DNA of 52,563 nucleotides from Planctomycetota bacterium (GCA_026991575.1 JALXBF010000115.1:1-52563); one strand, 5' to 3'; shown: positions 5,286 through 49,573, counted from the stretch's first letter. Program-made: numbers and translations. Notes: a model not told the origin generated them from the sequence alone.

Positions 5286-7493
5286 TCACCGTGATCGGGT
5301 CAGTACTGCCTTCAGCCACCGGTACGCCTGCCGTTTCTCACGCTCTGGGAAATCATGGCCGGAGTTCGGGTAGACGACCACCAGCCGGTCCACGGCACCA
5401 AACAGCCGATACACAGGCCGCACGGCAGCAATCACCTCGCGTACCCCGGCGTTGTCGAAATTGCCGTCATTCAGGGGGGCGTTGACAAACAGCGGTCGGG
5501 GTGCGATGGCAGCCAGCACTTCGTGGAAATCAAACGGCATCCGTTTCGGATCCATGGCATACGCGGTGCGGATCCGCGGCATGTAGCGATCGCTGGTCCA
5601 ACCACGCAGGTTGCCGCCGTAGTAGTTGGGAAAGGCCGTGAACCCGCAGCTGGTGACGACTGCCCGGATCCTCTGATCAAACGCCGCGGTGAACAGCGCG
5701 TTGTGGCCACCCAGGCTGTGCCCGAAAGCGGCGATCGCGTCCCGATCGACCTCGGGCCGAGACTCCAGCAGGTCGATAGCGCGAATGTTGTTCCAGATCG
5801 CTTTCATGGTGCCGGAAACGTACTCCGGATGCGTGCGGAAGTCGTAGCGATACTCACCAAAGCTCGGGTAATCGGGCACCAGGCAGACGAAGCCTTCTCG
5901 AGCCAGCTCATCCGCGTAGCGTCGGTTGGCACGGCCGGCCAGGCCGACCAGTTCATCCTTGCCGTGCGGGTTCGTTTGGTGCAGCACAAGTACGGCCGGA
6001 GCGGGGAGCTTCACACGGAGAGGCACCAGCAGGTAGGCTGGCACCCGGTCACCCGGATCGGCCGTGTAGAACAGCTTGATCCGGCGGTAGTACTGCGTGT
6101 CCACCTCTTCGACGATCTGCACATCTAACGGCACGCGCCGCTGCGGTCCTGGCAGCGGCCCCATGACCTTTTCCATGTTTCTCAGGATCTGGAACCGCCT
6201 GCGCCCCCAATCGAAAAGGTTCTCCCGGCGGATGTGTCGGAGCGTTCCACGCGGAGTTCGATAGATCAGCAGATTGCTGCGGTCATGGTAGACGGGCACC
6301 TGGTCAGCAGGCGGCACCGGATCGCGGTAGGCCTCCCCCTGAGCGGATCGGTTCTCGAAGCAGTACAGCCCGTTGCGCGTGGGGCCGATCAGGTCCAGGT
6401 CGCCATCGCCGTCCAGGTCGACGACTTCTGGATCAAGATCCCAGCCGCCGCTGTCCCATGCGATGGTGGCTGCATGCCACGATCTGGTCTTTCTGGAGAA
6501 CTGGTACGCTCGCACCAGCAGTGGGTCGTACTCACCGGGGTCGCGGCCGTCGTGGCCCAGGTAGCGGCGGGCGGCGACAAGCTCGGGCCGACCGTCTGCA
6601 TTGAGATCGGCCCAACGGAGGGCGTGCACCTGGGATATCGTGTGGTCAATGCAATGCAGCTGCCAGGTTCGCCGACCGCCGCTAGCCCGTTGCTCGAGCC
6701 AGTAGACGCCGATGTCGTGTCCTCGGCCCCAGATGAGGTCCGAGTCGCCATCGCCGTCAACGTCGACGACCAGGATGGGGATGGATGCATCGCGGTGCAG
6801 CGTGAACTCTGCCAGCCACTGCCAGCGGATGGTGCCCCCTGGGCCGGGCACCTGTCTGGCCCAACCCCTCTGACCGACAACGTCCACCAGTCCGTCCCCG
6901 TCCACGTCACCGGCCCCGATGCCATGGGCCCGGACCTGGTCGGGCAGGGGGCGTCTGGCGGTGGCGAAAGAAGCGACCCCGGGACCTGCCGGCAGAACGT
7001 ATCGCTCGTACCACGCGGCGTAGTCAATTCCGTTGGGGAGGATGTCCGGCAATCCGTCCCCGTTGATGTCTACCAGCAGAGCAGTCTCCGCACGACCAAG
7101 CCGTTCGACCTCAATGACCTGCCAGCTCTGTCCCAGGGCCGACGGGTTAATGGCCACCCGGACGGTGCCGCTGCGGTAGTTGACACTGACGATGTCTAGA
7201 TCACCGTCGCCATCGACATCGACCGGCAGGTTGCTGTAATCGTCGTAGCGGCCGCGGATTACCGGCACGTCGCGCAGGCGTATCAGTCGCCAGTGCGGGG
7301 CGAGGTAACCGAATGCACCGCAGACGATATCGCGATGCCCGTCGCCGTTGAGGTCCAGGGTGGTCGCAGCAGGAAACCGCGAGCCCGGGTGGATGACCAC
7401 CGTCCGGAACGGGGGTGGCCTGTAGTCGTCGCCACCGGCCGTGCTCGTAACGAGAACCATCAGCACGGTGCAAAGGGCCACAAGGAACGCCAC
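5286..7493 (-). CDS. Secreted FG-GAP/VCBS-repeat protein fused to an alpha/beta hydrolase (dienelactone hydrolase/esterase-like)
   Basis: Signal peptide; repeated DxD/NGDGxxD motifs; C-terminal VPAYLLVP, LHQT, GHSLGG nucleophile elbow and GHDF His. Confidence 0.85.
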   Translation of the reverse strand: MAFLVALCTVLMVLVTSTAGGDDYRPPPFRTVVIHPGSRFPAATTLDLNGDGHRDIVCGAFGYLAPHWRLIRLRDVPVIRGRYDDYSNLPVDVDGDGDLDIVSVNYRSGTVRVAINPSALGQSWQVIEVERLGRAETALLVDINGDGLPDILPNGIDYAAWYERYVLPAGPGVASFATARRPLPDQVRAHGIGAGDVDGDGLVDVVGQRGWARQVPGPGGTIRWQWLAEFTLHRDASIPILVVDVDGDGDSDLIWGRGHDIGVYWLEQRASGGRRTWQLHCIDHTISQVHALRWADLNADGRPELVAARRYLGHDGRDPGEYDPLLVRAYQFSRKTRSWHAATIAWDSGGWDLDPEVVDLDGDGDLDLIGPTRNGLYCFENRSAQGEAYRDPVPPADQVPVYHDRSNLLIYRTPRGTLRHIRRENLFDWGRRRFQILRNMEKVMGPLPGPQRRVPLDVQIVEEVDTQYYRRIKLFYTADPGDRVPAYLLVPLRVKLPAPAVLVLHQTNPHGKDELVGLAGRANRRYADELAREGFVCLVPDYPSFGEYRYDFRTHPEYVSGTMKAIWNNIRAIDLLESRPEVDRDAIAAFGHSLGGHNALFTAAFDQRIRAVVTSCGFTAFPNYYGGNLRGWTSDRYMPRIRTAYAMDPKRMPFDFHEVLAAIAPRPLFVNAPLNDGNFDNAGVREVIAAVRPVYRLFGAVDRLVVVYPNSGHDFPEREKRQAYRWLKAVLTRSR

Positions 7494-15209: not shown

Positions 15210-15575
15210 GCTGCCGGTCCGCCCAGGCGAACTCCGCGTTGGGGGGAAGTCTCAGGTTTTTTGCGGACCCGCTCTTGGGACGGGTCGTTGCGAAGCAGTG
15301 CCGGAAACGGCCTTGGGAGTAGCCCCGGGCGCGTGTGGCCGTGCGGATTCCGCTTCCCAGCCCTGTCGGATGACCGACCGAGGAAAAGCCTCGCGCTCGC
15401 CCGTGTGCGCAAGCGATAGCACGAAACCACCTTCTGGCTGCCCGTAAACCTGACGGTCACGCTCGCCGCGCCAGCGGGACACAGCCGGGCCCTGCTTTTG
15501 CTGCTATCGCCCTCTCCGCATCGGAAGGCCAGATTGCTCCCTGCGGTGACTATCCCCGGCGAGCACCCCCGTGCC

Positions 15576-15619
15576 AAAAGAAAAACGCCCGCTGGCCGGC
15601 AACCATTGCCGGCCAGCGG
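15576..15619 (-). terminator. Intrinsic terminator downstream of tmRNA
   Basis: 14-bp stem CCGCTGGCCGGCAA/TTGCCGGCCAGCGG with a 3-nt loop (15589-15619), followed after a short spacer by TTTTTCTTTT on the minus strand. Confidence 0.85.
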
Positions 15620-15632
15620 ACGCGGTCGTCAG

Positions 15633-15992
15633 TGGAGGCGGCGGGAATCGAACCCGCGTCCCGCGACAGCTCGGTGAGGGCTTCTACGTGCGTAGCCGGT
15701 CTAGTTCGTCTCGCCCAGCCGGCTCTGACCGGCAAGAGCACAGCTGAGCCAGTCCGGAGTGGTTTCTCGTCGGAGCCTCCCCGGACACCGGCTCCGACCA
15801 GCCCGGTTCACGGCCTCTTGCAGGTTCCCCCGGGCGAAGGATCCTGCAGAGGGGCTACGTGTTTCGCTTACGCAGCCAGAGCATAAGAAGGAGTCGCACT
15901 TATTGTGCAGTCGGCTTGATAACGGGGCCTGCCGACCAACCCCGGCACGCCACCTCTCACCTCGTCTGCCCGGTCGATACCAATTCGCCCCC
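15633..15992 (-). ncRNA. ssrA: tmRNA (one-piece), tag reading frame (A)ATPSYALAA*
   Basis: 5' GGGGGCG..TATCGAC, 3' T-arm GCGGGTTCGATTCCCGC and acceptor CGCCTCCA with a G.U pair. Internal ATAAGT-GCG resume context; tag at 15897-15868. Adjacent to smpB. Confidence 0.95.
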
Positions 15993-16222: not shown

Positions 16223-16693
16223 CTATCTTCGCTTCAGCATCCGCTGGCGGATCGCCTTCTTGGCCTCGCGTTCCCTGATCTTCTCCCGTTTGTCGTACTG
16301 GCGTCGTCCGCGTGCCACGGCGAGCTCCACCTTGGCCAGGTGTCGTTTGAAGTAGATCCGCAGCGGGATCAACGTGTAGCCCTTTTGCTGGACGCGGCTG
16401 GCCAGCTTCTCGATCTCGCGCCGATGCAGCAGGAGTTTCCTGGGGCGCTTCGGCTCGTGGTTCATGGCGCCGGCTTCCGGATAGATCGGAATGTCGGCGT
16501 TGACCAGCCACACTTCGCCGTTCTTGATGCGCGCAAACGCTTCTTCTATGGAGGCCTTACCACGACGCAAGCTCTTGACCTCCGTGCCCATCAGCGCCAT
16601 GCCAGCCTCGATCGTTTCCAGGATGTCGTAGTCGTGTTTGGCCTTACGGTTCCGGCAGACGATTTGTACGGCCTTGGTGTTTTGGGCGGCCAT
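16223..16693 (-). CDS. smpB: SsrA-binding protein SmpB
   Basis: NRKAKHDY, EAGMALMGTEVKSLR, RKLLLHRREI, YDKRE. Confidence 0.97.
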   Translation of the reverse strand: MAAQNTKAVQIVCRNRKAKHDYDILETIEAGMALMGTEVKSLRRGKASIEEAFARIKNGEVWLVNADIPIYPEAGAMNHEPKRPRKLLLHRREIEKLASRVQQKGYTLIPLRIYFKRHLAKVELAVARGRRQYDKREKIREREAKKAIRQRMLKRR

Positions 16694-17777: not shown

Positions 17778-17817
17778 AAAAGAAAAAGCCCTGAGGCTTC
17801 TCTGGGCCTCAGGGCTT
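17778..17817 (-). terminator. Attenuator terminator in the aroF leader
   Basis: 12-bp perfect stem AAGCCCTGAGGC/GCCTCAGGGCTT followed by a U-rich tract, about 30 nt upstream of the aroF start. Confidence 0.88.
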
Positions 17818-18151: not shown

Positions 18152-19468
18152 TCATCCGTACACGACCAACTTCTCCGTAAACGGAACAGCCATCCCCTCC
18201 TTGGAGCGGTGCCTGATGTACACGGCTCGATCACCTGGCCGACGAACGGAAACGTACATCTCGATGGTCATCTCCTTGGTGCCGGGAGTCAGATCGACCA
18301 CGACCTGACCCTCCGGGACGTTGCTAAGCCACTGATCTCTTAGCCCTTGCTGAGCCTCCACGAGCCGATCAGGGCTATCGAACTCGCAGAACACCCAGCG
18401 AGGTGACCGGGCAATCAAGCCTCTGGAGAAGCGTGCCACAAGGTCCCGAATCTCCTCGGCCTTCTGCCTCATGTTCTGCGTGTACAGCAGCAGCACCCGG
18501 TCCGGCTGTGTGGCGACGACGCTATAGAAAGCCGAAGCAGCGTTGCCGCTGGCGATCGTGACCAGCGTGTCCGCCGACTGCTGGCCCGTCTGCTGCAGCC
18601 ACTGCTCCCGCAACGCTGCAGCAACGCGGGGCATTACGACCCGCTGATAGTACGCCCTGGCTTTCTCATACTGTCCGGACGAAATCAGACGATCGAAGTA
18701 CTTTTGATGCTCTTGCGGCGGGGCGTCGGCTCGCGGGGCGGGCGGAAAGAGGTCCTTGCACGCCCGGAGCACCTCCCGAAGATCACGGTGCCGGCAGCTT
18801 AGCGAAACGATCTTCAACTCAGCACCCAGTTCTGCGCGCTTCCGCTCCGCTTCTTCTCGATTGAGCTCCGGAACCAGCAGTCGCTCTGCGCCGAGCTCCA
18901 CCGCAAGCTCGACCTTCTGAGGGATTCCCTTCACCGGAAGCACGCCAGACTCAGGGGACCACTCACCCGTGGCAAGACAGCGCAGCGGAGCCTCCAGCGT
19001 ATCCGCAACATCCAACAACGCGATCGCCGCGGGAACCCACCCGGACTCCCATCGCACCAGACTTGCGTCTGTCAGCAGCTCCACCGCCTCTTTCGATACC
19101 CCCTCGGGGGCACATAGGCGCCAGCCAGGCACGTCGAGGCTTCGGCTGACGCGGTCACCGAACGGCAGCACCAGACCGTCATCAGCTGCACCCGCCCGGC
19201 GCCACACAACCGGCAGCGCAATAGCCTGCCGCAGCAGCGGCACCTCCGCCAGCAGCACAAACAGAATCGCAGTGCGCCCTTCCCCGGTTGCTTCGGCCAG
19301 GTCCATCCTGTGGCTGTTGCCAAAGAGTTCATCCAGCCGGCGGAGCGCAGCCGGACACAAGATCCAGACACTCCACGGGCCGAAGGCTCGGGCAACCTGC
19401 GTTAACCGGCCCGGGGTCAACGCATCCAGTTCGGTATCGACTAGACGCAAGAGATCCGATCGAGTCAT
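18152..19468 (-). CDS. Lon-type (S16) protease domain fused to a C-terminal CARF-like domain, no AAA+ module (copy 1)
   Basis: WESGWVPAAIALL...LATGEW...GVLPVKGIPQKVELA..LGAERLLVPELN. Ser codon 19043-19045 and Lys codon 18914-18916 are 43 residues apart. The C-terminal ~140 aa has TLVTIASG..PDRVLLLYT..VVVDLTPGTK..AVYI. Start could be GTG 19540. Confidence 0.8.
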   Translation of the reverse strand: MTRSDLLRLVDTELDALTPGRLTQVARAFGPWSVWILCPAALRRLDELFGNSHRMDLAEATGEGRTAILFVLLAEVPLLRQAIALPVVWRRAGAADDGLVLPFGDRVSRSLDVPGWRLCAPEGVSKEAVELLTDASLVRWESGWVPAAIALLDVADTLEAPLRCLATGEWSPESGVLPVKGIPQKVELAVELGAERLLVPELNREEAERKRAELGAELKIVSLSCRHRDLREVLRACKDLFPPAPRADAPPQEHQKYFDRLISSGQYEKARAYYQRVVMPRVAAALREQWLQQTGQQSADTLVTIASGNAASAFYSVVATQPDRVLLLYTQNMRQKAEEIRDLVARFSRGLIARSPRWVFCEFDSPDRLVEAQQGLRDQWLSNVPEGQVVVDLTPGTKEMTIEMYVSVRRPGDRAVYIRHRSKEGMAVPFTEKLVVYG

Positions 19469-19584
19469 CGGAGTGCTCTTGCTCCGCTTCGATTGTTCCC
19501 CCGTTGTCGCCGGCGACAGCTCTCGTCCTCGAGATACCACTCGCCGGCCACCCCCGTGCGCTTACTGTCGTTACGCCAACAGTG

Positions 19585-20757
19585 TCAGCCTGTCGATTCA
19601 GGCCTCTCGTCCTGTTCGACCACACGCTGGGCTTCGCGCAGGGCGTCCAGGTCCGGCGGCCACTCCAGCGGCTCTGTTCCCGGTATGCTCACCTCAAGCC
19701 GCACCGGGGTGTCTTCAGCCAGTTGCCGGCGAAGTTCACGGACTGAGAACGAACAACGGCCTGATTCGTCGATGGTGGTCGTGACGCCGGCCAGTCGAAC
19801 CAGGCCCCCGGCCAGTTCCGTCGCCTCACTGCCGTCCGAATGGCGCACGAACAGCATTCGGATCTCGTCTTCGTCGCTCAGCGGATAACGGATTCTGCTC
19901 TCGGCACGGTACCGCCGCTGTGGATCGTGCCAGACGAGCCAGACCGGGATCCCGGTTCCGCGAGCAGCGGCTCGCACGGTGATGAGACCTGGCGGAAAAC
20001 GGGGATACTCCGGCTCGGGCCGTGGGGGCTCCATTGCGTAGACTACCGCTTCCGCCTCTGCGGCGGTGGCAGCGGCTGCCGTGAGCCGAGCGGTTAGCTG
20101 CTGCAGATCGCGTTCAACGTCACGTGCCAGGGCCTCGGCTGCTTCATCCAGGCCCGGCCCCAGCCACCACGGGGTCTCGTGGGCGTACTCGGGCACGATC
20201 GCGTCGCGCCAGCGCTTCAGCAGCGGGTTGCCGCGAACGGTGCACAAAACGTCGACCTGCTCACGCAGCGCTCGGTCGTACTCATTGAGCGCATCAGTCA
20301 GGCGCCCGACCAGCCCCAGGAACTCCTCATCGGTCACTTCCCCTGCGTCGACCGCCTCAAGCAGTCTGTGTGTCAGCCCGGTATAGACCGCCTGGGCTTC
20401 CATGCGGTTGACGAGCGCGTCCAGACAGAGCTGTTCGCGCCGGGTGAAGTCCTCTTCCGCATCCCACTGCTGGCCGAGCTTACGGGCCTGGTCGGCAAAC
20501 GCCAGAAAGGCTTCGGTGGCTTGGGCCGTACCTAGTCGAACCAGGTGCAACGGGATCTGGCCAGGCAGCTGGTCCTGGGCAACCCCGAACAGAAGACACT
20601 CGCCCAGTGCTCGGGCCGCCGTGTAAGCGACGCGACGAGCCTCTGCGTCGTCCGTGGTCGGTTCGGTCACGGCCTGGTGTCGGAGTGCCTCAGCCAGTTC
20701 CCGTAACGGGGAAGCCGTCAATTGTTCACGCAGTCGCTGGATCTCTTCTGTGTTCAT
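19585..20757 (-). CDS. Uncharacterised protein, putative anti-sigma factor/protease substrate (copy 1)
   Basis: Long ORF with GGAG RBS lying between the sigma-like and Lon-CARF genes. Its C-terminal domain is visibly homologous to that of 50959-52140. Function is inferred from context only. Confidence 0.6.
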   Translation of the reverse strand: MNTEEIQRLREQLTASPLRELAEALRHQAVTEPTTDDAEARRVAYTAARALGECLLFGVAQDQLPGQIPLHLVRLGTAQATEAFLAFADQARKLGQQWDAEEDFTRREQLCLDALVNRMEAQAVYTGLTHRLLEAVDAGEVTDEEFLGLVGRLTDALNEYDRALREQVDVLCTVRGNPLLKRWRDAIVPEYAHETPWWLGPGLDEAAEALARDVERDLQQLTARLTAAAATAAEAEAVVYAMEPPRPEPEYPRFPPGLITVRAAARGTGIPVWLVWHDPQRRYRAESRIRYPLSDEDEIRMLFVRHSDGSEATELAGGLVRLAGVTTTIDESGRCSFSVRELRRQLAEDTPVRLEVSIPGTEPLEWPPDLDALREAQRVVEQDERPESTG

Positions 20758-21023
20758 GGCTGCTCCGGCGGAAAATCCGCGTTTCCAAGACAAACCGTTC
20801 CAAACCAACCGGTCGGGGTCAGTTCAGCCACTGCCTCTGCCTGCATTTGTTACGACCCAGGGCGCAGACTCCTGACAGGAACCAGCCGCCACGTCTGCCG
20901 GGAGTCGCCGGCGGAGCCGGTCGCTTCCGGTCCTTGCCAGCCTGCCGGTACCATGGGCGGCGGCATGTGCACGTCGTGCTTCCGTCACGATGGCTGCCTC
21001 TGGGGTAACGTGACCGGTGCGCG

Positions 21024-21791
21024 TCAGCCGCGCAAGTTCTCGCGGAGTTCCTGAATCGCTTTAAGCTGCAGGAGATATCGCTTCTTCCGGCTCCACACGG
21101 CGTGCACCACAGCGGGGGAAACGCCTAGTTCCTGAGCCAGCGCCGTAGCGCGTCCGTGTTCCCACCCGGGATGGTCCAGATGAGGGGGTGGAAAGGATGC
21201 CGGGAGCTTGGCTTCGCTGCACCACTGGGCCCACACGACCGCTGGCACCTTGCGGTGCATTCCGGCCAGCACAAGCAGGATGATCCGGTCGCGTACCGGG
21301 ACCGACGCGAGAACTTCCAGGTCGTGCTGGCAAAACGGCTCGTTGCGTGCGGCGGTTTCGGCCGGTCCTGGAGCCGGGTCGTGCGGATCAAGGTGCGGGG
21401 CAGAACCGCCGTCATCGTGTTTGCGACCACCGCCGGTTGCAAGCTGCTCCCAGGACAGCTCTCGTCTTCTTTTCTTGACGAGATCGAGCAGGGCATTCTT
21501 CAGCACCCGGCGCGCCCAACCGACGAAGGGACTGCCGGCGCTGGGATTGTACGCTCCCTGCAGTACCTTCACCATCGCGTCCTGAACAACGTCCTCAAGC
21601 GTGGCGTCGTCGAAGCGGTTGCCGAAATGCAGTGCGTTCAGCATTCGCGACACCTGCATGAGCGCGTCGCGTACCCGGAGCGCAGCCGCGTCCTCTTGAT
21701 GCGGTGAAGCAGTTGGGTTGAGCAAAGTGGATACGGCAGCGTGTAACGCCGTTTGCTGCCCGGATGTCTGTTGCCCTTGACCCGCTGCCAT
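21024..21791 (-). CDS. ECF-like sigma-70 family sigma factor (copy 1)
   Basis: Region 2: LEDVVQDAMVKVL..YNPSAGSPFVGWARRVLKNALLDLVKKRRR. Region 4-like: LASVPVRDRIILL and ALAQELGVSPAVVHAVWSRKKRYL. Start could be GTG 21803. Confidence 0.8.
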   Translation of the reverse strand: MAAGQGQQTSGQQTALHAAVSTLLNPTASPHQEDAAALRVRDALMQVSRMLNALHFGNRFDDATLEDVVQDAMVKVLQGAYNPSAGSPFVGWARRVLKNALLDLVKKRRRELSWEQLATGGGRKHDDGGSAPHLDPHDPAPGPAETAARNEPFCQHDLEVLASVPVRDRIILLVLAGMHRKVPAVVWAQWCSEAKLPASFPPPHLDHPGWEHGRATALAQELGVSPAVVHAVWSRKKRYLLQLKAIQELRENLRG

Positions 21792-21996
21792 TGGAACTCC
21801 CACGTTCTCTCAGCGCAACCGTCCGCATCAGTGAGTACAAGCCGGGGGTTCAGCGTGCCACCACAGAGGCTGGCCACGCGATCGGCTGCCCTGTCGCGGC
21901 CGACAGCAACAGCAGGCCGTTCCCGGGTGCCCGACTGCCTGTCTCGCGGGCGTGACGCGTTCGGGTTTGCTTGCCCCGCGACCGAAGGCGCCCGCT

Positions 21997-22005
21997 AGTG
22001 TAGCA
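21997..22005 (-). promoter_or_regulatory. Possible extended -10 promoter element upstream of the sigma/partner/Lon-CARF unit
   Basis: TGCTACACT (TGn + TAnnnT) on the minus strand about 200 nt upstream of the sigma gene; motif match only. Confidence 0.25.
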
Positions 22006-22618
22006 GCGCGCACCTGCTGGAGACAGATGCCGGCCGTTCCCCGCCCCGGTTAGTCCGGACCCAACCGGGCACCGTACTTCGGCCGAGCGCGGAACGCGAA
22101 GGATCGGCCCCGGCGCGCGTCGAAGCACCGTGTGCCAGGGCCGGCTCCACGCAGCGCGCCCTGGAGGCTCGGGATTGTGGAGTGTGCCGGCTCCGTGAGA
22201 CTCTGCAGCGTCGTGCCGTGACGAGGGGCCGTCAGAGGCTGGCAGTGGGGGCCTTGCGATGCACTCCGCCCAAAGGCAGGCGCCTTTCTGAGGCTGCCAA
22301 TGCATGCCCCAGGTTGCTCGGCCCTCGGTACATGACACGGACGAAGCGGCGAGAGCACTCCAACGCAACGAGCGTGCCAGGTCAGGTCAACGTGGCGCGG
22401 CGACACTCGCGCGAGACTCATCTACAAGGCCAGCCAACCGGCCGGCAGTCGGGACACCGCACGGATGAGTCGGGCCGTCTGCAACCCCCGGGATCCGAAC
22501 CAGGGGTCACGACGTGTCCTGTTCGTTGACCGTATGCTGCGGGTGCCGGTATACTTGCGATCCGTAACCCGGTGCCCCAGGAGGATGCCGGGGGTCATCA
22601 CCAAGAAAGGAGCACGGC

Positions 22619-29910: not shown

Positions 29911-31749
29911 TTAGACGTCGATCGGTTCTTCTTCATACTCAAGGATTACCCGATGGCGAGGTTTCAGATACCCGCGACGCACGGCTTCCTCGGAGAGGCG
30001 TACCGTATCGCGTGGCAGAGTATCGTCCGGCTCGCCAACCACAGCATGGACGGACCGCAAACCCCCTAACCACCAACGCGCGTCGCACACGTAGACAACA
30101 TCACCTTGCTGGAGGTCCAGTTCCTTCATGGTCTCCGGATGCAGATGCAGCCGCGGATCGGTTCCGGGGACGACCTGCACTCGAAATCGACGGTGCCAGA
30201 TGTCGTGCCGCGCCCGACGTCGCGCCGGCCGGGGTCGCGGGATGTGGAACCACGTGAGGCGGTCTGCAGCGCTCTCGGCAGCCGGGACCAGGTAGGTCGC
30301 GGCGACGGCGATAACCAACGAGGTCACCAGCCCGAACAGGCTACGCATGTGGGAGTAACCTTCGGAGGGATCAACCCCGTGGGCAAAGGGGGTTACCAGC
30401 GCGGGGTAGTTCAGAGCGGTGATCATCAGGATCATGCCCAGCACCATGGCGATGATGGCCGCGCGAGCGTGGAAGCGAGGCCAGAGCATCGCCAGCGCCA
30501 GCGGCACGGCCAGCGGAGGTGCCACGGTGGAGAGAAAGTCGCTGAGTGCCTGATAGATCGTGTCGTAGTGTTGGAAGACCGGAATGAGACTGATGCCGAG
30601 AACGGCTGACACGATAGCCACGATCCGAGCGACGGTCAGGTAATGCTGGTCGCTCCGGCCCGGCAGGACGGGTCGGTAGACATCGTTGACGCCGATGGCA
30701 GCTACAGCGGTGATCAGCGTATCGAGCGTACTCATCAGAGCGGCCACCACTGCGGCCAGAACCAGCCCCTGGAAGCCGGGGCCGCACACCTTACCGGTCA
30801 CCGCCACGAAAATGTTGCCTGCATCGACGTCCTCGGGCAGAATACCCCGCTCGACCATGGCTCGTCCGGCCCAACCGGCGCCGCTGACCGCCACCGCCGC
30901 AACGGGCATAAGCACCACGACGACGAACAGCATCGCTTTGCGCCCCTCACGCACCGAGCGGGCTGACAGGAACCGCATCAGCACCCCCTGGTTGATGAAG
31001 TAAAACGCGAACGTGGCGGTCATGGCATCGTTCCAGAAATTCCCCACGGCATGCAGATAGGGAGGCGTATTGAACCGGGCAAACGGGAACCTGTGATGGT
31101 AGGGCAACGCCGCCCAAAACTCGGCCAGGCCACCCACTTCGGCGATACCCAACAGGAAAACGCCAATGCCGGCGGCCAGCAACAGAAGTCCCTGGAACAC
31201 GTCGGTGGCGAGAACGGAAGTCTGGCCACCGGCATGCAGATAGATGCCCGAGATCAGCGCCATCAGCGCGGCACCGTACACCTCAGGCATGCCAAAGACG
31301 CCCTTCATGATCCGGCCGATCGTCAACAGGTTCACTGCCACGTAGCCCTGCAGGTAGACCAGCAGGATGAGTGTCACAACGAAACGGACCTGCCAGTTGA
31401 ACCGGCCGTGAAAGTATTCGGGGACGGAAGTGATCCGGTGGTAGTACATCAGAGGGAACCAACCGAACAGGAACAGCGGCAGGACGAACCATTCGTTCGT
31501 GTACGGCGTCATCGCGCAGAAGCCGTACTTGAAACCCACCTCAGAGTACTGGACGAAGCTGTACGATCCGACGAGTGTGGCCACGCAGGACATTGCCAGC
31601 ACCCACCAATGGAACCGGCGTCCTGCGAAGAAGAAGTCGGCCGTACTCTTGGTAAACTTGCCGAACCAGGTGCCGATGGCCAGGACAAGCACGAAATAGA
31701 GCGCTACGACGATGTAATCGGCCAGCACCAACTCGGTGGCACGGCTCAT
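29911..31749 (-). CDS. Sodium:solute symporter (SSS) with a soluble C-terminal extension
   Basis: DFFFAGRR, SVPEYF..RF, TDVFQG, AALMST motifs; many TM helices. Confidence 0.92.
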   Translation of the reverse strand: MSRATELVLADYIVVALYFVLVLAIGTWFGKFTKSTADFFFAGRRFHWWVLAMSCVATLVGSYSFVQYSEVGFKYGFCAMTPYTNEWFVLPLFLFGWFPLMYYHRITSVPEYFHGRFNWQVRFVVTLILLVYLQGYVAVNLLTIGRIMKGVFGMPEVYGAALMALISGIYLHAGGQTSVLATDVFQGLLLLAAGIGVFLLGIAEVGGLAEFWAALPYHHRFPFARFNTPPYLHAVGNFWNDAMTATFAFYFINQGVLMRFLSARSVREGRKAMLFVVVVLMPVAAVAVSGAGWAGRAMVERGILPEDVDAGNIFVAVTGKVCGPGFQGLVLAAVVAALMSTLDTLITAVAAIGVNDVYRPVLPGRSDQHYLTVARIVAIVSAVLGISLIPVFQHYDTIYQALSDFLSTVAPPLAVPLALAMLWPRFHARAAIIAMVLGMILMITALNYPALVTPFAHGVDPSEGYSHMRSLFGLVTSLVIAVAATYLVPAAESAADRLTWFHIPRPRPARRRARHDIWHRRFRVQVVPGTDPRLHLHPETMKELDLQQGDVVYVCDARWWLGGLRSVHAVVGEPDDTLPRDTVRLSEEAVRRGYLKPRHRVILEYEEEPIDV

Positions 31750-34342: not shown

Positions 34343-35512
34343 CTAGCTCAGCGTTTGTAGCGAGCGCCTTACGACTCGCGTCGCCAGAAGCACCGCGGCC
34401 GCAGCAAAGGCCGCGAGAGCGGCCAGGTTCGGCAGCAGCACCTCGAAGACATCACCAGCCAGAAACGCTGTCTGCAGACAGCTCACCAGATACCTGGGCG
34501 GGAACAAATAGGTTGCGTACTGCAGAGCGGTTGGCATGGAGCGGATCTCAAACACGAACCCTGACAACATGAACGATGGCAGGAAAGCGATGATCATCGT
34601 CGCCTCCGCGGAGACGAACTGAGATTTCGCCACGGTGGAAATCGTCAGCCCGACGGCCAGCGAGACGACCAGGTACAGGGCGCTTGCTGCCGCCAGCACC
34701 CAGTAGCTTCCCCTGAACGGCACGCCAAAGACGACGATTGCCATGACAAACGTGAACGCTGCCCCTGCAGTGCCGAGCACGAAGTAGGGGGCAAGCTTTG
34801 CCAGCACCAGCTCGGCCGGCCCCAGCGGCGTACTTTGCAGTTTTTCGATTGTTCCCTGCTCATACTCGCGCGCCACGACCAACGCGGTTAACATCGCACC
34901 TAGCAACGTCAGAATCACGGCCGTGGTCCCGGGCACCAGGTAGTAGCTGCTGTCCACGCGCTGGTTGAACCACAGCCGTCCTTCCAGGTACACCCCCCCG
35001 CGGCTGGTGTTTGCCTCGGCCAGCCGAATTGCTGCCGAAAGGTAGGCGCGCGCGAGCTGGGCCGTATTGGCATCCGTCCCGTCAACCAGAACCTGAACCT
35101 CGCCCCCTCGGCCCAGGCGGTGCATGCGAGCGGGGAAGTCAGAGCGGATGCGGACGATTGCCAGAACGTCACCTCGTGCCAGCAGCCGCTCCGCGTGCGC
35201 CATCCCCGCGACAACCCTCGGTTCGATGTATGGCGATCCCTCAAGACGCGCCAGGACCTCGCTGACCGAGGGTGTGAGTCCGTCGTGGACCACGGCCACC
35301 GGTAGGTGCTCCAGATCGAGCGAGACGCCGTACCCGAACAGGACAAGCAGCAGAAGCGGCAGCACAAACGCGATCCCGAAGCTGCTCGGGTCTCGCACGA
35401 TTTCGATCAGTTCCTTGCGGCCCATTGCCAGGACGCGACGGACCGCACCCCCGTGGCGAACGCTACGGGCCATGTTCTGAGCACTCCGCCCTCGAGCTTG
35501 CATCCTCTTCAT
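34343..35512 (-). CDS. ABC-2 type exporter permease (YbhS-like)
   Basis: KELIEIVRDPSS, VQVLVDGTDANTA, WFN, AREYEQGTIE, MLSGFVFEI. Confidence 0.9.
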   Translation of the reverse strand: MKRMQARGRSAQNMARSVRHGGAVRRVLAMGRKELIEIVRDPSSFGIAFVLPLLLLVLFGYGVSLDLEHLPVAVVHDGLTPSVSEVLARLEGSPYIEPRVVAGMAHAERLLARGDVLAIVRIRSDFPARMHRLGRGGEVQVLVDGTDANTAQLARAYLSAAIRLAEANTSRGGVYLEGRLWFNQRVDSSYYLVPGTTAVILTLLGAMLTALVVAREYEQGTIEKLQSTPLGPAELVLAKLAPYFVLGTAGAAFTFVMAIVVFGVPFRGSYWVLAAASALYLVVSLAVGLTISTVAKSQFVSAEATMIIAFLPSFMLSGFVFEIRSMPTALQYATYLFPPRYLVSCLQTAFLAGDVFEVLLPNLAALAAFAAAAVLLATRVVRRSLQTLS

Positions 35513-37334
35513 GTTCGATCAGCGCAACGTACGCGTCCTCCAGCGTGCGCACCGACGGATCGAACTGCCGGGCCCGTGCGCGAATCTCGGCGGGCGATCC
35601 TTCGGCGAGCAGCCGGCCTGCGACAAGAATGACCATGCGGTCGCAGTACTCTGCTTCCTCCATGAAGTGAGTCGTTACCAGGACGGTCTTGCCGGCGGCC
35701 GCGAAGCCGTTGATCCGCTGCCAGAACTCGCGTCGCGCAAGTGGGTCGACGCCGGAAGTAGGCTCATCCAGGAAGATCATGTCCGGATCGTGTACCACGG
35801 CACAAGCTAGCGACAACCGCTGCTTGAAGCCCAGCGGCAGCGAACCACTACGCACGTCGCTGTATGGCGTGAGTCCGAAGCTGGCTAGCAGCGATGGCAC
35901 CCGTGCCGCTAGCTGGCGACGGCTCAGCCCATACGCGCGACCGTAGAACCAGAGGTTTTCCTCTGGTGTCAGATCGCCATAGAGCGCGAACTTCTGGGCC
36001 ATGTAGCCGATTCGGCGGCGCAGCGCGATCGGCGAACGGGTCGCGTCGATGCCCGCCACGCGAAGTTCGCCGGACGTCGGCCGCAGTACCCCGCACAGCA
36101 TGCGGAACAGCGTCGTCTTGCCGGCGCCGTTTGCGCCCAGCAGCCCAAAGATTTCCCCCTTCTGCACGGTAAACGTCACGCCCTTGATCGCCTCGAACCG
36201 GCCAAACCGCTTTCGGACGTTGTTGACCTCAATTGCCGGCTGTTGCCAACGTGCTCTCTCTGGCGTGTGCTGCAGCTCGTGCGTCGGCCCCCCCGCACTG
36301 CCCGTCGCGTTGCCATCGGCGGCCTCTTGGCTCGAGCGGCTCGCCGGTGCGAATGCCGGCGGCACTGTTGGCTCCCGCTGCTCACTCAAAGCCAGCGCAA
36401 AGGCTTCGCCGAAACGAGGCTCGGCGACGTGCGCTGTACATCGGCCTGTTTCCCGAGCTGCTGACCGCAACCGCTCAGCCACTTCTTCGGCCCGTTCGGT
36501 TACCAGCACACGAACCTCATCCCCTTCGACCACAGCATCCAAGACCCCCGGGACAGACGCAATCCGAGCCGCCAAGAGCCGCGGCTGCAACGCTCCGTCT
36601 CGACAACTGAGCACTCGACCACGCGCCTGGGCTGTGAACTGATCCGGTGGTCCGCTGTAGAGTAAGCTGCCACGGTCCAGCACCACGGCGTAGTCCGTCG
36701 CAGCCACCTCATCCATGTACGTGGTAGAAAGCACCACCGTGACGCCGCGTTGGACAGCCTGCCGGTAGATCCCCCACATGTCCCGCCGCGACATGACGTC
36801 GACGCCCACGCCAGGTTCATCCAACAGAAGCAACTGCGGGTTGCTGAGCAGTGAACAGATCAGGGCAAGTTTCTGACGCATTCCTCCCGACAGATGCCGC
36901 GCCAGTCGCGACTGAAACTGACCCAGCCGGGCAACCTCCAGCAGTTCCTGGATCCGATTCTTCCGCTCCCTGCCACTGACCCCATACAACGTGGCGAAGA
37001 GCTCTACGTTTTCACGCACACTGAGGTTGTCATACACTCCGCCCGTCTGTGGCATATAGGCGACGTGCCGCTTCAGCTCGGCCGCAGCCGTGCGGATGTC
37101 CCTGCCCAGCACGGTCACCGTACCATCGGCCGCGCCGACGATGCCGGCCAGCAGCCGCAGAAGCGTGGTCTTGCCGGCACCGTCAGGGCCGACAATACCA
37201 ACGATGCGTCGCCGCGGCAGTTGTACTGTGAGCTCGCGCAGAGCCATCGTTCCGCGCCGGCCCGAACGGTACTGGACCGAGACGCCGACCAGCTCGACGG
37301 CAACCTCACTGCTTACATTGCTCACTGCGCTCAT
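35463..37334 (-). CDS. ABC transporter ATP-binding protein with two ATPase domains (YbhF-like)
   Basis: GPDGAGKTT/LSGGMRQK/LLDEP and GANGAGKTT/LPLGFKQR/FLDEPTSGVDP, THFMEEAE. Confidence 0.92.
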   Translation of the reverse strand: MSAVSNVSSEVAVELVGVSVQYRSGRRGTMALRELTVQLPRRRIVGIVGPDGAGKTTLLRLLAGIVGAADGTVTVLGRDIRTAAAELKRHVAYMPQTGGVYDNLSVRENVELFATLYGVSGRERKNRIQELLEVARLGQFQSRLARHLSGGMRQKLALICSLLSNPQLLLLDEPGVGVDVMSRRDMWGIYRQAVQRGVTVVLSTTYMDEVAATDYAVVLDRGSLLYSGPPDQFTAQARGRVLSCRDGALQPRLLAARIASVPGVLDAVVEGDEVRVLVTERAEEVAERLRSAARETGRCTAHVAEPRFGEAFALALSEQREPTVPPAFAPASRSSQEAADGNATGSAGGPTHELQHTPERARWQQPAIEVNNVRKRFGRFEAIKGVTFTVQKGEIFGLLGANGAGKTTLFRMLCGVLRPTSGELRVAGIDATRSPIALRRRIGYMAQKFALYGDLTPEENLWFYGRAYGLSRRQLAARVPSLLASFGLTPYSDVRSGSLPLGFKQRLSLACAVVHDPDMIFLDEPTSGVDPLARREFWQRINGFAAAGKTVLVTTHFMEEAEYCDRMVILVAGRLLAEGSPAEIRARARQFDPSVRTLEDAYVALIEHEEDASSRAECSEHGP

Positions 37335-37870
37335 TCGCTGCCGCAGCGCGTGCCACTCCGGAAGAAACACAGCCAGCTGGTGGTCTGGCCATGCAGGGGC
37401 TTCAGGTGGCGGGTCTGCCAGCTGGTATGCAAGACCGAGCTTCCCTCTCCAGGCGCCACTGCACACCGAGCCCTAAAGCGCGATCACGTGGTGCTAGCTT
37501 CGCTGTATGCTAGGAACCGACGGTGTCTCGTTCAACGATTGCGTTCGCACCCGGTCACGTTCAGTCTTTCTGGACAGGGAACGACGGCGGGTTGGATCCG
37601 CAGGCGGTGGCCCCAAGTTGTCCGACGAGCGCCCGCGCCAGGTGCGGCGGCTTCGACACCGGCTCGAACCGTCAGGGTGCGTCTATCCATGGACAACGAA
37701 GTGTGCCCCGCCACGATCGGCCCTGCTGTCGGGTGGGACGGAAGAAGACCAACCTGCGGCTCATTGCGTCGTGAACCTGCGCGGGGCGCCGCCGAGAGGG
37801 CTCGGTAAGGTGGGGTAGCTTGGCGCCAATCGTCTCGCCGTCCCACGTGTGGGAACGGGATCAGAGCGTC

Positions 37871-38932
37871 CTACTTATGAACCGCCTGATTCTTTTTCTC
37901 TGTGTCCGCTTGCTGCTTTTCCTGTTGGTGTTGAGGCTTGGTTGAACGCAGTGGCACGAAGACATCCACCGGTTGGCCCAGTCTCAAGCGACCCTCGTGG
38001 TTCGACACCCAGACCCGCATCTCGTAGACCAGCTGCGTGCGGAGCTCGGGCGTCTCCACCGTACGTGGCGTAAACTCGGCGACCGGTGCGATATGCCCGA
38101 TCTTCCCCTCAAAGCGTTCGTCCGGATAGGCGTCCGAACGGATCGTGACCCTCATGCCCGGCCGGACACGACCGAGATATGGTTCGGGCAGGAACGCTCG
38201 CACCCAGACCGGATCACTCAGGGCGAGCACGAACACAGGCCGATCCGGTGCTGCGTAGTCGCCTTTCTCCAGCAGCCGCTCTTCGATGATGCCTTTCCCG
38301 GGGGAGCGAAGTTCGGTCTGTTGCAGGCGGTATTCGGCCAGCGCCAGGGCTGCTTCGCGGCGGCGTAGCTCGGCCCTGGCCGCCTCGATATCCTCGACCC
38401 GCGGGCCGGCCAGGACCAGGTCGAGCGTTGCCTTGGCCGCGTTGTACCGGGCCTGCGCCAGGGACAGTGCTGCCAGAGCGTCGTCCACGTCCTGTTGCGA
38501 AGCGGCGCGCGTTTCCAGCAGCCGCACCAGCCGTTGGTAGCGTCGCCTGGCATCGGTCAGCTCCGCCTCGGCACCGGCCACATCCGCCTTCGCTTTACGG
38601 ATCTCTTCCGGTCGGCTGCCGGCCTGCAACGCGGCCAGCTTCTGGCGCTGCTGTTCCAGTGCGCTGCGGGCCTCAAGCACGGCCAGATGGTACGGCTCTT
38701 GACGCAAGCGAGCGAGCACATCGCCGGCCTCAACCTCGTCCCCCTCATCCACCAGCAGCTCGTCGATGAGCTCGGCGACGGCGAACGACAGGTGTACCTC
38801 GCGTACTTCGACATGGCCGCTCAGCCGCAGCTCATCCGGATCAGACCGGTCCCGCAGCCAATCGGCAGGCAGGCACCCCACCGCCGTCAGCGCAAGCGGA
38901 ACAAGCAAGGTCCGTACCCAGCGCCGTGCCAT
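37871..38932 (-). CDS. HlyD family efflux membrane fusion protein (YbhG-like)
   Basis: LSGHVE, VDEGDEVEAGDVLA, GSRPEEI, AEFTPRTVETPELRTQLVY, LRLGQPV. True start ATG 38932 (GGAG RBS). Confidence 0.9.
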   Translation of the reverse strand: MARRWVRTLLVPLALTAVGCLPADWLRDRSDPDELRLSGHVEVREVHLSFAVAELIDELLVDEGDEVEAGDVLARLRQEPYHLAVLEARSALEQQRQKLAALQAGSRPEEIRKAKADVAGAEAELTDARRRYQRLVRLLETRAASQQDVDDALAALSLAQARYNAAKATLDLVLAGPRVEDIEAARAELRRREAALALAEYRLQQTELRSPGKGIIEERLLEKGDYAAPDRPVFVLALSDPVWVRAFLPEPYLGRVRPGMRVTIRSDAYPDERFEGKIGHIAPVAEFTPRTVETPELRTQLVYEMRVWVSNHEGRLRLGQPVDVFVPLRSTKPQHQQEKQQADTEKKNQAVHK

Positions 38933-48004: not shown

Positions 48005-49483
48005 ATGAACCACTTCCGTACTGCTGTTCGCCAGGTCGCGCCGGACAGAACATCTGGTCGACGCACAATGCATGGGGTCACGATTTCAAGGGAGACGTTC
48101 GATTCCCTCGCGGAGCTTGCCGAAGAATACGGCCGTCGTCCCCGGTTGCGGCCATACATCGCAGAGAAGGCCTGTGATCTGGTGCAAGCCTTCGCTCCGT
48201 GGTGGCTAACGGCCGAGGCCCTGGCACAGGCCAGCCGCAGTGGTACTCCGCCCGCAGATGCGGTGGATCCTGCAAGGTTCACCACTCACGGCCTGGCCCG
48301 CATCCTTTGCCTGTGGCCGACGGCACTGGCCGCGACCATCGAACGAACGGCACCCGCGCGGGACGGTGCTCGCTTGTTACGCGACGCTTGCGTCTTGCCC
48401 GTGCGGTGGGTTCTTGGTGCTTCGCGGCCTGTCAATCCTCTTCCCGATCCACTGGCTCAACTCGCTGAGACTGTCCGATGCGAACTACGGGAAGTCGGCC
48501 TGTTGGCGCACGGCCAGGAAGTCACCCTGGAGTGGTGCCTGGGCCCCTATCGCTTGAAGAGCCCCATCGAGTTCTGTGATGTACAGCTAAGTCTTGCGTC
48601 CGGCTTCGTCCCTTTGGCCTCGGCACTGATTGTGGCAGCGAACGGAGGCGAGCCTGCCGTGGGCGTGTGGTCCACGGGAGCGTGGAACGCGGAGTTCAAC
48701 TTTTGCGAGAACGTGGACGGCGTGCCGCAAAAGGTGCGGACAGCGCTTTCGTTTGGTGCCGAACACGTTTTCGTCCCCTCCGGAAACTACCACGAAGCAG
48801 CAAGGGAAGCAGCCAGGCCCGAGCAGGTGCATGCGCTGGCCGTGGGGCCATCGCTGGACCGAGTGCTCGCGCCGCTGTTGGTGGCCTATCGGGCAGAGCC
48901 ACCTGCCAACGCCTCCTACGAGGAGAAACGCGCGTACTACGTGTACACAGCCGAGTACGATCCGTCGCGCGCACGACGGTACTACGACCGGGCACTCCTG
49001 GAAGACGTCGCGGCCCGAGTGACGCAACGGATGGATGCCCAGCTTTGCTCGCTTGTGGAAGGCCGCTGCGCTCTGGTAACCGTGGCCAGCCAGAGTCCAG
49101 GTGTCGTGTTGCTGGCGGCTTTGGTATTCCGCCCTTGCCGAATCGTGCTCGTGTACGACGATGCGCAGGCCGCCAAGCAGGTGAATGACGAACTGAGGCA
49201 ACGCGGTTACAGCAACGTGGTATGCCTGAGGCTGGACGAAGACCATTTGGGCACAGTGAGGCAGCTCGCCGCAAAGATCAACGAGTGCACAGCGGGCCTG
49301 CCTGTCATCATTGACCTGACTCCGGGTAGCAAGAGCCACACGCTTGCGCTCTACCGGGCACCTGTACAACGGGCCCATCGCGTCTATCTGAGGAACCGCT
49401 GGACCCAGCCGTCCCGAAAGGGGGCGCGGGGGATCGAGGACCCCGACACGATGCAATACGTGACGGTGACAGACGACCAGTAG
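48005..49483 (+). CDS. Lon-type (S16) protease domain fused to a C-terminal CARF-like domain, no AAA+ module (copy 2)
   Basis: LASGFVPLASALI...WSTGAW...VDGVPQKVRTA..FGAEHVFVPSGN. Ser codon 48599-48601 and Lys codon 48731-48733 are 44 residues apart. C-terminal ALVTVASQ..PCRIVLVY..IIDLTPGSK..RVYL. Start may be ATG 48068. Confidence 0.78.
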   Translation: MNHFRTAVRQVAPDRTSGRRTMHGVTISRETFDSLAELAEEYGRRPRLRPYIAEKACDLVQAFAPWWLTAEALAQASRSGTPPADAVDPARFTTHGLARILCLWPTALAATIERTAPARDGARLLRDACVLPVRWVLGASRPVNPLPDPLAQLAETVRCELREVGLLAHGQEVTLEWCLGPYRLKSPIEFCDVQLSLASGFVPLASALIVAANGGEPAVGVWSTGAWNAEFNFCENVDGVPQKVRTALSFGAEHVFVPSGNYHEAAREAARPEQVHALAVGPSLDRVLAPLLVAYRAEPPANASYEEKRAYYVYTAEYDPSRARRYYDRALLEDVAARVTQRMDAQLCSLVEGRCALVTVASQSPGVVLLAALVFRPCRIVLVYDDAQAAKQVNDELRQRGYSNVVCLRLDEDHLGTVRQLAAKINECTAGLPVIIDLTPGSKSHTLALYRAPVQRAHRVYLRNRWTQPSRKGARGIEDPDTMQYVTVTDDQ

Positions 49484-49573
49484 CTGCTGGTGCCACGGCC
49501 TCCAGAGGCTACGGGATCGACTGCTGGGACACCAGAACGGGGTGGCGTCGGTAGCGTAGCAGAGCAGAAGGTG

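Follow-up and report, generated by a model that had tools for sequence, protein, structure and literature searches.

A candidate nucleotide-gated switch built from a Lon-CARF protease, a putative anti-sigma protein and an ECF-like sigma in a Planctomycetota genome

What would a protease with a nucleotide sensor do beside a sigma factor gene, away from any cas gene? The question is raised by positions 18152-21803 of a 52,563-nucleotide stretch from Planctomycetota bacterium (GCA_026991575.1 JALXBF010000115.1:1-52563), which we call the window and whose positions are counted from its first letter. Reading of the open reading frames (ORFs) placed three co-oriented genes there, all on the minus strand, for an extracytoplasmic function (ECF)-like sigma factor, a 390-residue protein here called the partner, and a protease that joins a Lon proteolytic domain to a CARF domain. 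An earlier reading of this DNA from sequence alone (the sequence-only reading) had taken them for a CARF-based analogue of the CalpL/T/S system, in which a nucleotide-activated Lon protease, CalpL, cuts CalpT, an anti-sigma factor, and releases the sigma factor CalpS (mechanism as given in the available text of PMC11417357, 10.1101/2024.05.08.593097 and PMC11229360). Our answer, to which we assign a probability of roughly 0.6, is that the module is an anti-sigma cleavage switch gated by cyclic oligoadenylate (cOA), resembling CalpL/T/S in its logic without being a member of that family.

Three gene products and a predicted sigma-partner complex

The genes and the parts of their products are as follows, with domain limits from sequence alignment, Foldseek or AlphaFold2 (AF2) models and confidence as the predicted local distance difference test (pLDDT).

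21024-21803 (-): ECF-like sigma gene, 259 aa (amino acids)
~21462-21611 (-): sigma region 2 (Sigma70_r2)
~21027-21326 (-): region-4-like C-terminal part of the sigma, kept among orthologues
19585-20757 (-): partner gene; the ATG at 20757, start in database record P0006, gives 390 aa
20023-20757 (-): helical N-domain of the partner, residues 1-245 (AF2)
19948-20037 (-): linker of the partner, of lower confidence (pLDDT blocks 66-72, AF2)
19654-19950 (-): beta-rich C-domain of the partner, residues 270-368, with a terminal helix after it (AF2)
18152-19468 (-): Lon-CARF protease gene; the ATG at 19468, start in record P0001, gives 438 aa
~18749-19291 (-): Lon proteolytic domain (A. fulgidus LonB alignment, Foldseek)
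19043-19045 (-): Ser166 codon, by alignment on the LonB catalytic dyad
18914-18916 (-): Lys209 codon, by the same alignment
~18155-18586 (-): single CARF domain (Foldseek, profile search)
18269-18295 (-): DLTPGTKEM loop within the CARF domain

The partner frame is open up to 20808 (19585-20808, 407 aa) and the protease frame up to 19540 (18152-19540, 462 aa); residue numbers of the protease follow the 462-aa frame.

The protease matched the PADLOC model PDLC01981 (CARF_m2--CARF_LON) at E 2.3e-81, residues 25-461 covering model positions 1-406 of 408, and the model begins at the ATG at 19468. Its best single-sequence match in the PDB was the proteolytic domain of A. fulgidus LonB, the catalytic dyad of which lined up with S166, in WESGW, and K209, in IPQKV; both residues, together with the T, G and K of the DLTPGTKEM loop, were invariant in nine of nine aligned family members. 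Foldseek on an AF2 model (mean pLDDT 87.7) returned TtCsm6 (E 3.7e-9), Cam1 bound to cyclic tetra-adenylate (cA4; 4.4e-7) and Can2 (4.6e-5) for the CARF part, and 1z0e (3.3e-7) followed by many LonA and LonB chains for the Lon part. A profile of the family searched against the PDB likewise gave LonB (1z0e, E 1.5e-11) and Csm6 (1.4e-9), then Cam1, Can2, Card1 and Crn1, and the Pfam family CARF_Card1 matched at E 0.001, under the Pfam cut-off. The order of parts was an N-terminal helical part, the Lon domain and a C-terminal sensor consisting of one CARF of ~145 residues. No AAA family was matched by Pfam at E<=1, leaving the protein with no AAA+ module, and there was no Pfam match to SAVED. No CalpL chain stood among the listed PDB sequence and Foldseek matches or among the best 60 of 68 profile matches. 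We conclude that the protease is a full-length member of the predicted CARF_m2 CARF-Lon family, that its Lon proteolytic domain appears catalytically intact, judged by the kept Ser-Lys dyad, and that a cOA site probably forms only when the single CARF dimerises.

The sigma factor was recognised by Pfam Sigma70_r2 at E 2.9e-9 (37 bits; cut-off 24). TIGR02937 matched at E 1.2e-8 with 34.8 bits, below its cut-off of 42.9, and the ECF models of NCBIfam matched as well, all under cut-off. A PDB sequence search gave the ECF sigma factors SigE and SigH as the best solved relatives. Among orthologues the C-terminal part was conserved, with an insertion and with a helix-turn-helix-like stretch at the end.

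The partner had no family in Pfam, NCBIfam or PADLOC at E<=1, those of nucleases, toxins and enzymes included. No PDB relative was found at E<=10 with the single sequence, nor with an 81-row profile. A profile search of 1.84 billion representative proteins returned 541 relatives at E<=1e-3, of which 396 were at E<=1e-10; among ten relatives looked up, nine carried no name and one was a "hypothetical protein." An AF2 model built with 81 relatives (pLDDT 94.0) showed two domains and a linker, and the length of the linker varied greatly across relatives. The VIA wide search on the partner gave generic three-helix bundles only.

Prediction of a complex between sigma residues 30-259 and the whole partner, each with its alignment, gave an interface score (ipSAE) of 0.89, 0.89 and 0.90, while the best of three controls scored 0.00. 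Of 157 solved complexes 116 came up to this ipSAE mark, as did 2 of 215 mismatched pairs, a calibration that is approximate for runs with their own alignments such as these. Contact agreement between runs was at least 73%, and the pLDDT of the partner was at least 84. Confident contacts joined partner residues 95-229 to sigma residues 47-64 and 92-109, in region 2, and 213-253, in the C-terminal region; the C-domain of the partner was left free. A helical domain that contacts both sigma regions is the mode of an anti-sigma factor, and it is because the predicted contacts fall in both region 2 and the region-4-like part that we read the partner as anti-sigma-like. We conclude that the partner is predicted to be an anti-sigma-like protein that binds the sigma factor through both of its regions.

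Most of what the sequence-only reading had said of the three products was borne out. The genes lay at the coordinates it gave, in one orientation; the order of a Lon domain and then a CARF-like domain was found alike by the full-length PADLOC match, Foldseek and the PDB profile search; and the Csm6, Cam1 and Can2 matches gave the C-terminal domain a CARF fold, a single CARF rather than the SAVED sensor of CalpL, as had been claimed. The ECF-like sigma was upheld by the above-cut-off Sigma70_r2 match with SigE and SigH as nearest solved relatives. The ~390-residue protein described as unfamiliar indeed had no Pfam, NCBIfam, PADLOC or PDB sequence match and, at 390 aa with neither a MazF-like nor a DUF2080 signal, is a candidate substrate larger than CalpT and apparently unrelated to it. 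Binding between partner and sigma, on which that reading depended, was predicted by the complex model (ipSAE 0.89, controls 0.00).

Recurrence of the cassette and its setting in the genome

If the three products act together, their genes should keep company elsewhere. PDLC01981 matched 11 of 401 sampled genomes of the phylum at E<=1e-10, and in 6 of the 11 genomes the match spanned most of the model: this genome (G000, three copies), G330, G282, G082, G210 and G135. Eight further Lon-CARF loci came from a scan of genome contigs and lay in metagenome-assembled genomes (MAGs) of Planctomycetota, Pirellulaceae and Gemmatales, and the relatives used had PDLC01981 E-values from 3.9e-152 to 1.4e-25. 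A protein with the C-domain of the partner was present in 12 of the 16 Lon-CARF loci examined (two modules in the window, L027, L028, L029, where the match was weak at E 6e-4, L032-L037 and L039) and missing from C183, L030, L031 and L038, a 3-kb contig. A sigma of the same type was found in 7 of the 16 (this locus, L027, L032, L034, L035, L036, weakly, and L037); the contig of L033 ends 216 bases before the partner. The profile of the partner matched 3 of the 401 genomes (G000, G330 and G282), all 3 of which carry a full-length Lon-CARF. In one Pirellulaceae MAG the partner gene (L034:5789-6915) was split into overlapping frames, with the N-domain at 5789-6727 and the C-domain at 6361-6915, the mark of either a frameshift or an assembly error.

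A metagenome scan with a motif of the partner N-domain gave 74 loci, which were searched with hidden Markov models (HMMs) of the N-domain, C-domain, sigma, fourth gene (below) and protease; 40 loci held two-domain partners and 34 an N-domain without the C-domain. A same-strand Lon-CARF lay downstream of all 37 two-domain partners with at least 300 bp of downstream flank, and a sigma gene lay upstream of all 27 with at least 1800 bp of upstream flank. Among C-domain-less partners with at least 600 bp downstream (n=23), 16 had no Lon-CARF match and 7 had a weak one (E 8e-4 to 2e-10); the 16 were mostly N-domain-alone proteins of 229-300 aa without a sigma. These counts indicate that the C-domain tracks the Lon-CARF and that the two-domain partner tracks the sigma. 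We conclude that the three genes co-occur in other genomes and in metagenome cassettes, as the sequence-only reading required of them.

Elsewhere the usual order was sigma, a fourth gene of 190-270 aa, partner and Lon-CARF, with a protease-first order in L032 and in a second module of the window. The fourth gene was present upstream of 24 of the 27 two-domain partners just counted; in most relatives it lies between sigma and partner, encodes 188-267 aa and has an invariant "E-WG" motif near the C-terminus. Its product had no Pfam family. The usual cassette elsewhere has four genes, and this copy has three. Examples of the fourth gene are:

L027:12523-13293
L037:5106-5846
L034:4933-5565
L035:4871-5674
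L032:4385-4951

A Barnase/EndoU/RelE-like nuclease was considered for the fourth gene from Atlas neighbours (0.85); the value was under the lead threshold and was not relied on.

Among the seven weak Lon-CARF matches, two were in ORFs cut by the contig end (L092, 265 aa; L121, 501 aa) and five in ORFs of 1082-1549 aa (L105, L106, L109, L119 and L131). Giant ORFs at L105:5932-10578, L109:1686-6227, L119:4329-7574 and L131:622-5133 matched the Lon-CARF profile at E 3e-5 to 4e-10, and the cassettes before them held a sigma, a fourth gene and an N-domain partner with a different C-terminal part. Such cassettes may carry a different protease or sensor architecture.

Is there, then, a source of cOA for this module? 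On contig C183, a Cmr6/Cmr1 fusion, Cmr4, Cmr3 and a Cas10/Cmr2 whose GGDD motif is intact were found, with no obvious HD motif seen in the first 200 residues of the Cas10. A second type III locus, on contig C32, has five RAMP genes and a short, GGDD-bearing Cas10, and is directly followed by a 524-aa protein with the partner C-domain (C32:13289-14863). Contig C96 carries, in order, a CRISPR array (30571-30943), Cas1, a reverse transcriptase (RT), a 413-aa C-domain protein and a relative of a 371-aa protein encoded in the window (below), the part with the C-domain protein being 35077-38488. The genome has four CRISPR arrays of one repeat family, with 7, 8, 15 and 20 repeats, a third Cas10-like ORF of 564 aa with GGDD (C27:74184-74666, -) and a Can2-like CARF/PD-(D/E)xK nuclease within a 500-aa open frame (C162:2531-3550, -). 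A search of the genome for SAVED proteins gave no match, and control genomes were equally silent. Judged by the GGDD motif of its Cas10 proteins, the genome encodes cyclase-competent, and so cOA-producing, machinery.

Relatives point the same way. In L039 a partner-like gene, Lon-CARF, RAMP and Cas10 stand one after another, and the Lon-CARF of G082 adjoins a Csm6-like CARF-HEPN. The Lon-CARF of G210 (L030:9091-11163, +) ends in a Csx16/STIV B116-like domain (Pfam E 3.4e-20), and a gene for a Cas6-RT-Cas1 fusion is 2 kb away; this form of the protease would be self-limiting. A 1118-aa ORF in a RAMP cluster of G135 (L031:7828-11184, -) joins a Lon-CARF (PDLC01981 E 1.4e-25, residues 155-539), at its N-terminus, to Cas10 (E 6e-53, residues 566-1016), so that cOA synthase and cOA-sensing protease would be one polypeptide. 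The cassette of G330 sits among efflux and glycosidase genes in a cas-free neighborhood, as in this window.

The module also has paralogues in the same genome, which holds three Lon-CARFs: the copy at 18152, a second in the window that is 30% identical to it, and a third at C183:32245-33669 (L013:12245-13669; PDLC01981 E 6e-77). The second module of the window reads:

48005-49483 (+): second Lon-CARF paralogue, 492 aa, PDLC01981 E 2.2e-67
49490-50605 (+): 371-aa protein, no Pfam or PADLOC match
50860-52140 (+): 426-aa protein, the partner C-domain on a different N-terminal part

The 426-aa protein matched the partner by BLASTP (E 1e-5), by hhalign (probability 92.5%, E 4.8e-7) and with the C-domain HMM (E 1.1e-13). 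The 371-aa protein matched the divergent sigma of L036 by phmmer at E 1e-5 and the sigma alignment by hhalign at E 0.04, and Sigma70_r2 occurred in 13% of the members of its Atlas neighbor cluster; these weak similarities suggest that it is possibly a very divergent sigma-like protein. The third Lon-CARF shares its contig with the Cmr locus, ~21 kb away, and is oriented divergently to the genes for an ECF sigma (217 aa) and for a 706-aa protein. The 706-aa protein resembles, by eye, a Ser/Thr kinase with TPR repeats.

Six proteins of the genome carry the C-domain, two in the window and one each on C34, C117, C32 and C96. Two of the six, those on C32 and C96, are beside cas genes; of the other four, those on C34 and C117 are in unannotated surroundings and the rest in ordinary chromosomal ones. 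Contig C34 ends in a second full partner and contig C12 in a second sigma of the kind found here; the two may be neighbors in the real chromosome. Tentatively, and as a possibility that we would not yet back, the three proteases and six tagged substrates, spread over the chromosome, could make up a modular, multi-output proteolytic network below type III CRISPR, with the C-domain as a portable "cut-me" handle on varied cargos. The cargos would be helical sigma-binding domains of a new kind, or other regulators.

Upstream of the sigma genes, the 41 available regions reduced to 31 non-redundant ones on removal of near-duplicate metagenome loci. The pattern GGAAA N15-18 CAA occurred in 8 of the 31, against a maximum of 4-6 in 20 shuffles, and a GCGGAAA-like element in ~14 of 32. 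In some loci, including L034, L037, L060, L069, L077, L093 and L114, a GCGGAAAC-like element was followed 15-17 bases further on by CCAAC/ACAAT-like bases; of the window copy, at 21924 (-), only the first half is clear. The element is suggestive of an autoregulated ECF-type promoter in some lineages and is not convincing for this window. A 10-mer found twice upstream of the sigma gene was rejected as a promoter: the genome has 28 sites against 36 expected, so that it is not enriched, and one of the two copies falls within a tRNA-Ser gene.

The nearest features around the module are:

21987-22074 (+): tRNA-Ser(GGA), 184 bp upstream of the sigma gene
17786-17817 (-): terminator-like hairpin downstream of the protease gene, 12-bp stem and T-run
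16226-16693 (-): smpB, 2 kb downstream of the module
15632-15992 (-): tmRNA gene with tag ATPSYALAA, likewise 2 kb downstream

The hairpin is a consensus match only, of a kind with 4 sites in the window and 3.3 expected in shuffles, and is likely the end of the operon. A second tmRNA call, at 15366-15723, overlaps the first and looks spurious. No cas gene was found by Pfam scan among 31 other ORFs of the window, which are of housekeeping type; base composition is even along the window, with no shift. A genomic island was considered, given the tRNA-Ser gene on one side and the tmRNA gene on the other; no integrase gene turned up in the scanned window ORFs, a result that did not include a search for flanking repeats. 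The sequence-only reading had called the module stand-alone, with no adjacent cas locus, and the description holds for the 52.6-kb window and fails for the genome, where type III loci lie on other contigs.

A candidate switch and its rivals

How might these parts work together? At rest, the N-domain of the partner would clamp sigma regions 2 and 4, as the complex prediction has it, and keep the sigma off RNA polymerase, while the C-domain would be the handle recognised by the Lon-CARF, as comparative genomics suggests. When type III complexes meet target RNA, GGDD Cas10 would make cOA. The species would most likely be cA4, because the nearest solved CARFs bind cA4 (TtCsm6, Cam1, Can2, Card1 and Crn1 among the Foldseek and profile matches listed) and one relative is fused to the Csx16/B116 ring-nuclease-like domain. 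Bound to the CARF of the ATPase-less Lon-CARF, probably a dimer, cOA would activate the Ser166-Lys209 dyad, and the activated protease would cut the partner, the probable site being the flexible linker (residues ~241-270) that joins the two domains. The sigma would be freed by the cut, or after housekeeping proteases had cleared the leftover fragment, and would then drive its regulon. The ligand, the cleavage and its site, docking through the C-domain and the regulon are the steps that we infer. The overall interpretation of the sequence-only reading, nucleotide-gated proteolytic sigma release by a CARF-based analogue of CalpL/T/S, gains support from the CARF fold, the co-occurrence of the genes and the predicted sigma-partner complex.

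Several observations weigh against such a switch. This locus has no cas neighbor, and signaling in trans is an assumption. The fourth gene has no relative in this module or anywhere in this genome, from which it follows that this copy could be reduced or could work differently, and the third Lon-CARF has no C-domain protein beside it. Pfam did not recognise region 4 of the sigma, to which the sub-cut-off TIGR02937 match may be added, and the regions upstream of the sigma genes, in the window and in relatives, yielded no robust promoter motif. No known anti-sigma domain (ASD/ZAS, RskA, NepR and others) was recognisable in the partner in the Pfam, PDB and Foldseek searches, Foldseek gave nothing at E<=1e-3 for it, and no structural relative was convincing. 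Short N-domain-only proteins occur with neither sigma nor protease nearby, which means that the N-domain is not exclusively an anti-sigma module. Finally, the metagenome counts overstate independence, because many of those loci are near-duplicates.

Part of this evidence could be read differently. The same sigma-release switch might answer to a trigger other than type III CRISPR, be it another nucleotide, a metabolite or cOA of another source, as a general stress ECF pathway that only sometimes lies near cas genes. Such a pathway would fit the housekeeping genes that surround both this locus and that of G330, neither of which has a cas gene nearby, as well as the place of the third paralogue beside a pair of ECF sigma and apparent Ser/Thr kinase, a typical non-defense arrangement. 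We nevertheless consider it unlikely: cOA is what CARF domains of this kind are so far known to sense, and the nearest solved ones are cA4 binders of type III ancillary proteins; relatives are fused to a ring-nuclease-like domain or to Cas10, or lie inside type III loci; and in this same genome partner-domain paralogues stand directly beside RAMP/Cas10 and RT/Cas1 genes. Chance adjacency, in which a decayed or orphan CRISPR accessory protease merely came to lie near a sigma gene, would account for the missing fourth gene and the lack of a local cas locus, and is very improbable given three intact ORFs, conserved residues at the catalytic site and in the CARF loop, and the same gene order recurring across distant lineages.

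The protease might instead have a different target or end. The partner could be an adaptor or activator and the sigma the protein degraded, so that the switch turns transcription off, or a fragment of the partner could be the effector, with the sigma controlling the operon only. The partner is without a known fold, its N-domain also stands alone without a sigma, and in its paralogues the same C-domain is joined to unrelated N-terminal parts, so that something other than a sigma could at times be the cargo set free; CalpT itself was first read as a toxin precursor (available text of PMC9704534 and 10.1101/2021.12.06.471393). Set against this are the predicted interface, which spans sigma region 2 and the region-4-like part in the classic inhibitory anti-sigma mode, the sigma present for 27 of 27 two-domain partners with enough upstream flank, and the absence of any detectable nuclease, toxin or enzyme family in the partner. 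We judge a different target or outcome to have a small probability only, and we favor the cOA-gated release of the sigma from its partner.

Comparison with known systems

Fusions of CARF and Lon have been foreseen. Makarova et al. 2020 predicted them bioinformatically in their CARF classification, according to PMC9704534, the available portion of which treats CARF-Lon as uncharacterised, speculates on host killing by essential or promiscuous cleavage and mentions no sigma or dedicated substrate. CalpL itself at one time went by the name "Lon-CARF," until SAVED4 was recognised in its sensor (available text of 10.1101/2021.12.06.471393). In full-text literature we found no CARF-Lon with a sigma or dedicated substrate, in a search that left subscription journals largely uncovered and with a remark on gene neighborhoods possible in Makarova et al. 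2020; the papers returned dealt with CalpL, SAVED-CHAT and ring nucleases only. The statement of the sequence-only reading that this was not a characterised system therefore needs division: the protease family was already predicted and has a PADLOC model, whereas the link to sigma and partner was not found in print.

If the proposed switch is real, signaling from protease to sigma would be a recurrent solution, reached here with a different sensor and an unrelated sigma inhibitor, and the predicted CARF-Lon family would gain a concrete substrate and output. It would also give a name to a family of at least 541 representative proteins now without annotation, and offer a compact set of ligand, protease and substrate as a possible cOA-triggered switch. 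Copies far from cas genes raise the question of how far CRISPR second-messenger signaling reaches into the chromosome, and under the network reading CRISPR sensing would be wired into several transcriptional programs at once.

Related logics are known. In Craspase, the Csx29 substrate Csx30 is bound to the sigma factor RpoE. The module resembles Craspase (Csx29-Csx30-RpoE) and SAVED-CHAT in that a CRISPR-triggered protease cuts a regulator or pro-enzyme (available text of PMC10028731 and 10.1101/2023.06.23.546230). Those proteases are caspase-like CHAT enzymes, activated by target RNA or by SAVED and cyclic tri-adenylate (cA3), whereas the protease here is Lon-type with a CARF. Sigma release by cutting of an inhibitor also recalls RseA/sigmaE (DegS, RseP, ClpXP), the analogy drawn for clearance of the leftover fragment by housekeeping proteases in the available text of 10.1101/2024.05.08.593097. 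In RseA/sigmaE, however, the anti-sigma factor spans the membrane and the proteases answer envelope stress, whereas the trigger here would be a nucleotide and all three proteins appear soluble, in that none matched a membrane-bound family, a comparison that did not include a test for transmembrane segments.

The closest likeness is to CalpL/T/S, known from Sulfurihydrogenibium and Ca. Cloacimonas, by which type III CRISPR answers infection by reprogramming transcription rather than by destroying nucleic acid and which one survey found in 17 of 1113 loci (available text of PMC11229360). Like CalpL, the protease is an ATPase-less Lon-type Ser-Lys enzyme with an N-terminal helical part, a Lon domain and a C-terminal nucleotide sensor; like CalpL/T/S, it comes with the genes of an ECF-like sigma and of a two-domain protein that would, by prediction, hold that sigma, has a link to type III CRISPR, here in the genome and in relatives, and is expected to follow a logic in which cOA leads to anti-sigma cleavage and then to a transcriptional response. 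The parts themselves differ. The sensor of CalpL is a pseudo-dimeric SAVED4 of two fused CARF-like halves, which oligomerises, whereas here it is a single CARF of ~145 aa. CalpT, whose cleavage depends on cA4, has a MazF-like N-domain and a DUF2080 C-domain, whereas the partner has a helical N-domain and a beta C-domain with neither signal in Pfam at E<=1, and so, as far as this is testable, is not a CalpT homologue. CalpL/T/S lies inside a type III locus, whereas this copy is away from cas genes with type III loci on other contigs, and the usual CARF-Lon cassette has a fourth gene. What would be new beside CalpL/T/S is the combination of a CARF-gated Lon, a non-homologous family of anti-sigma-like substrates with a portable C-domain and an ECF-like sigma, set apart from cas loci and multiplied into a small network.

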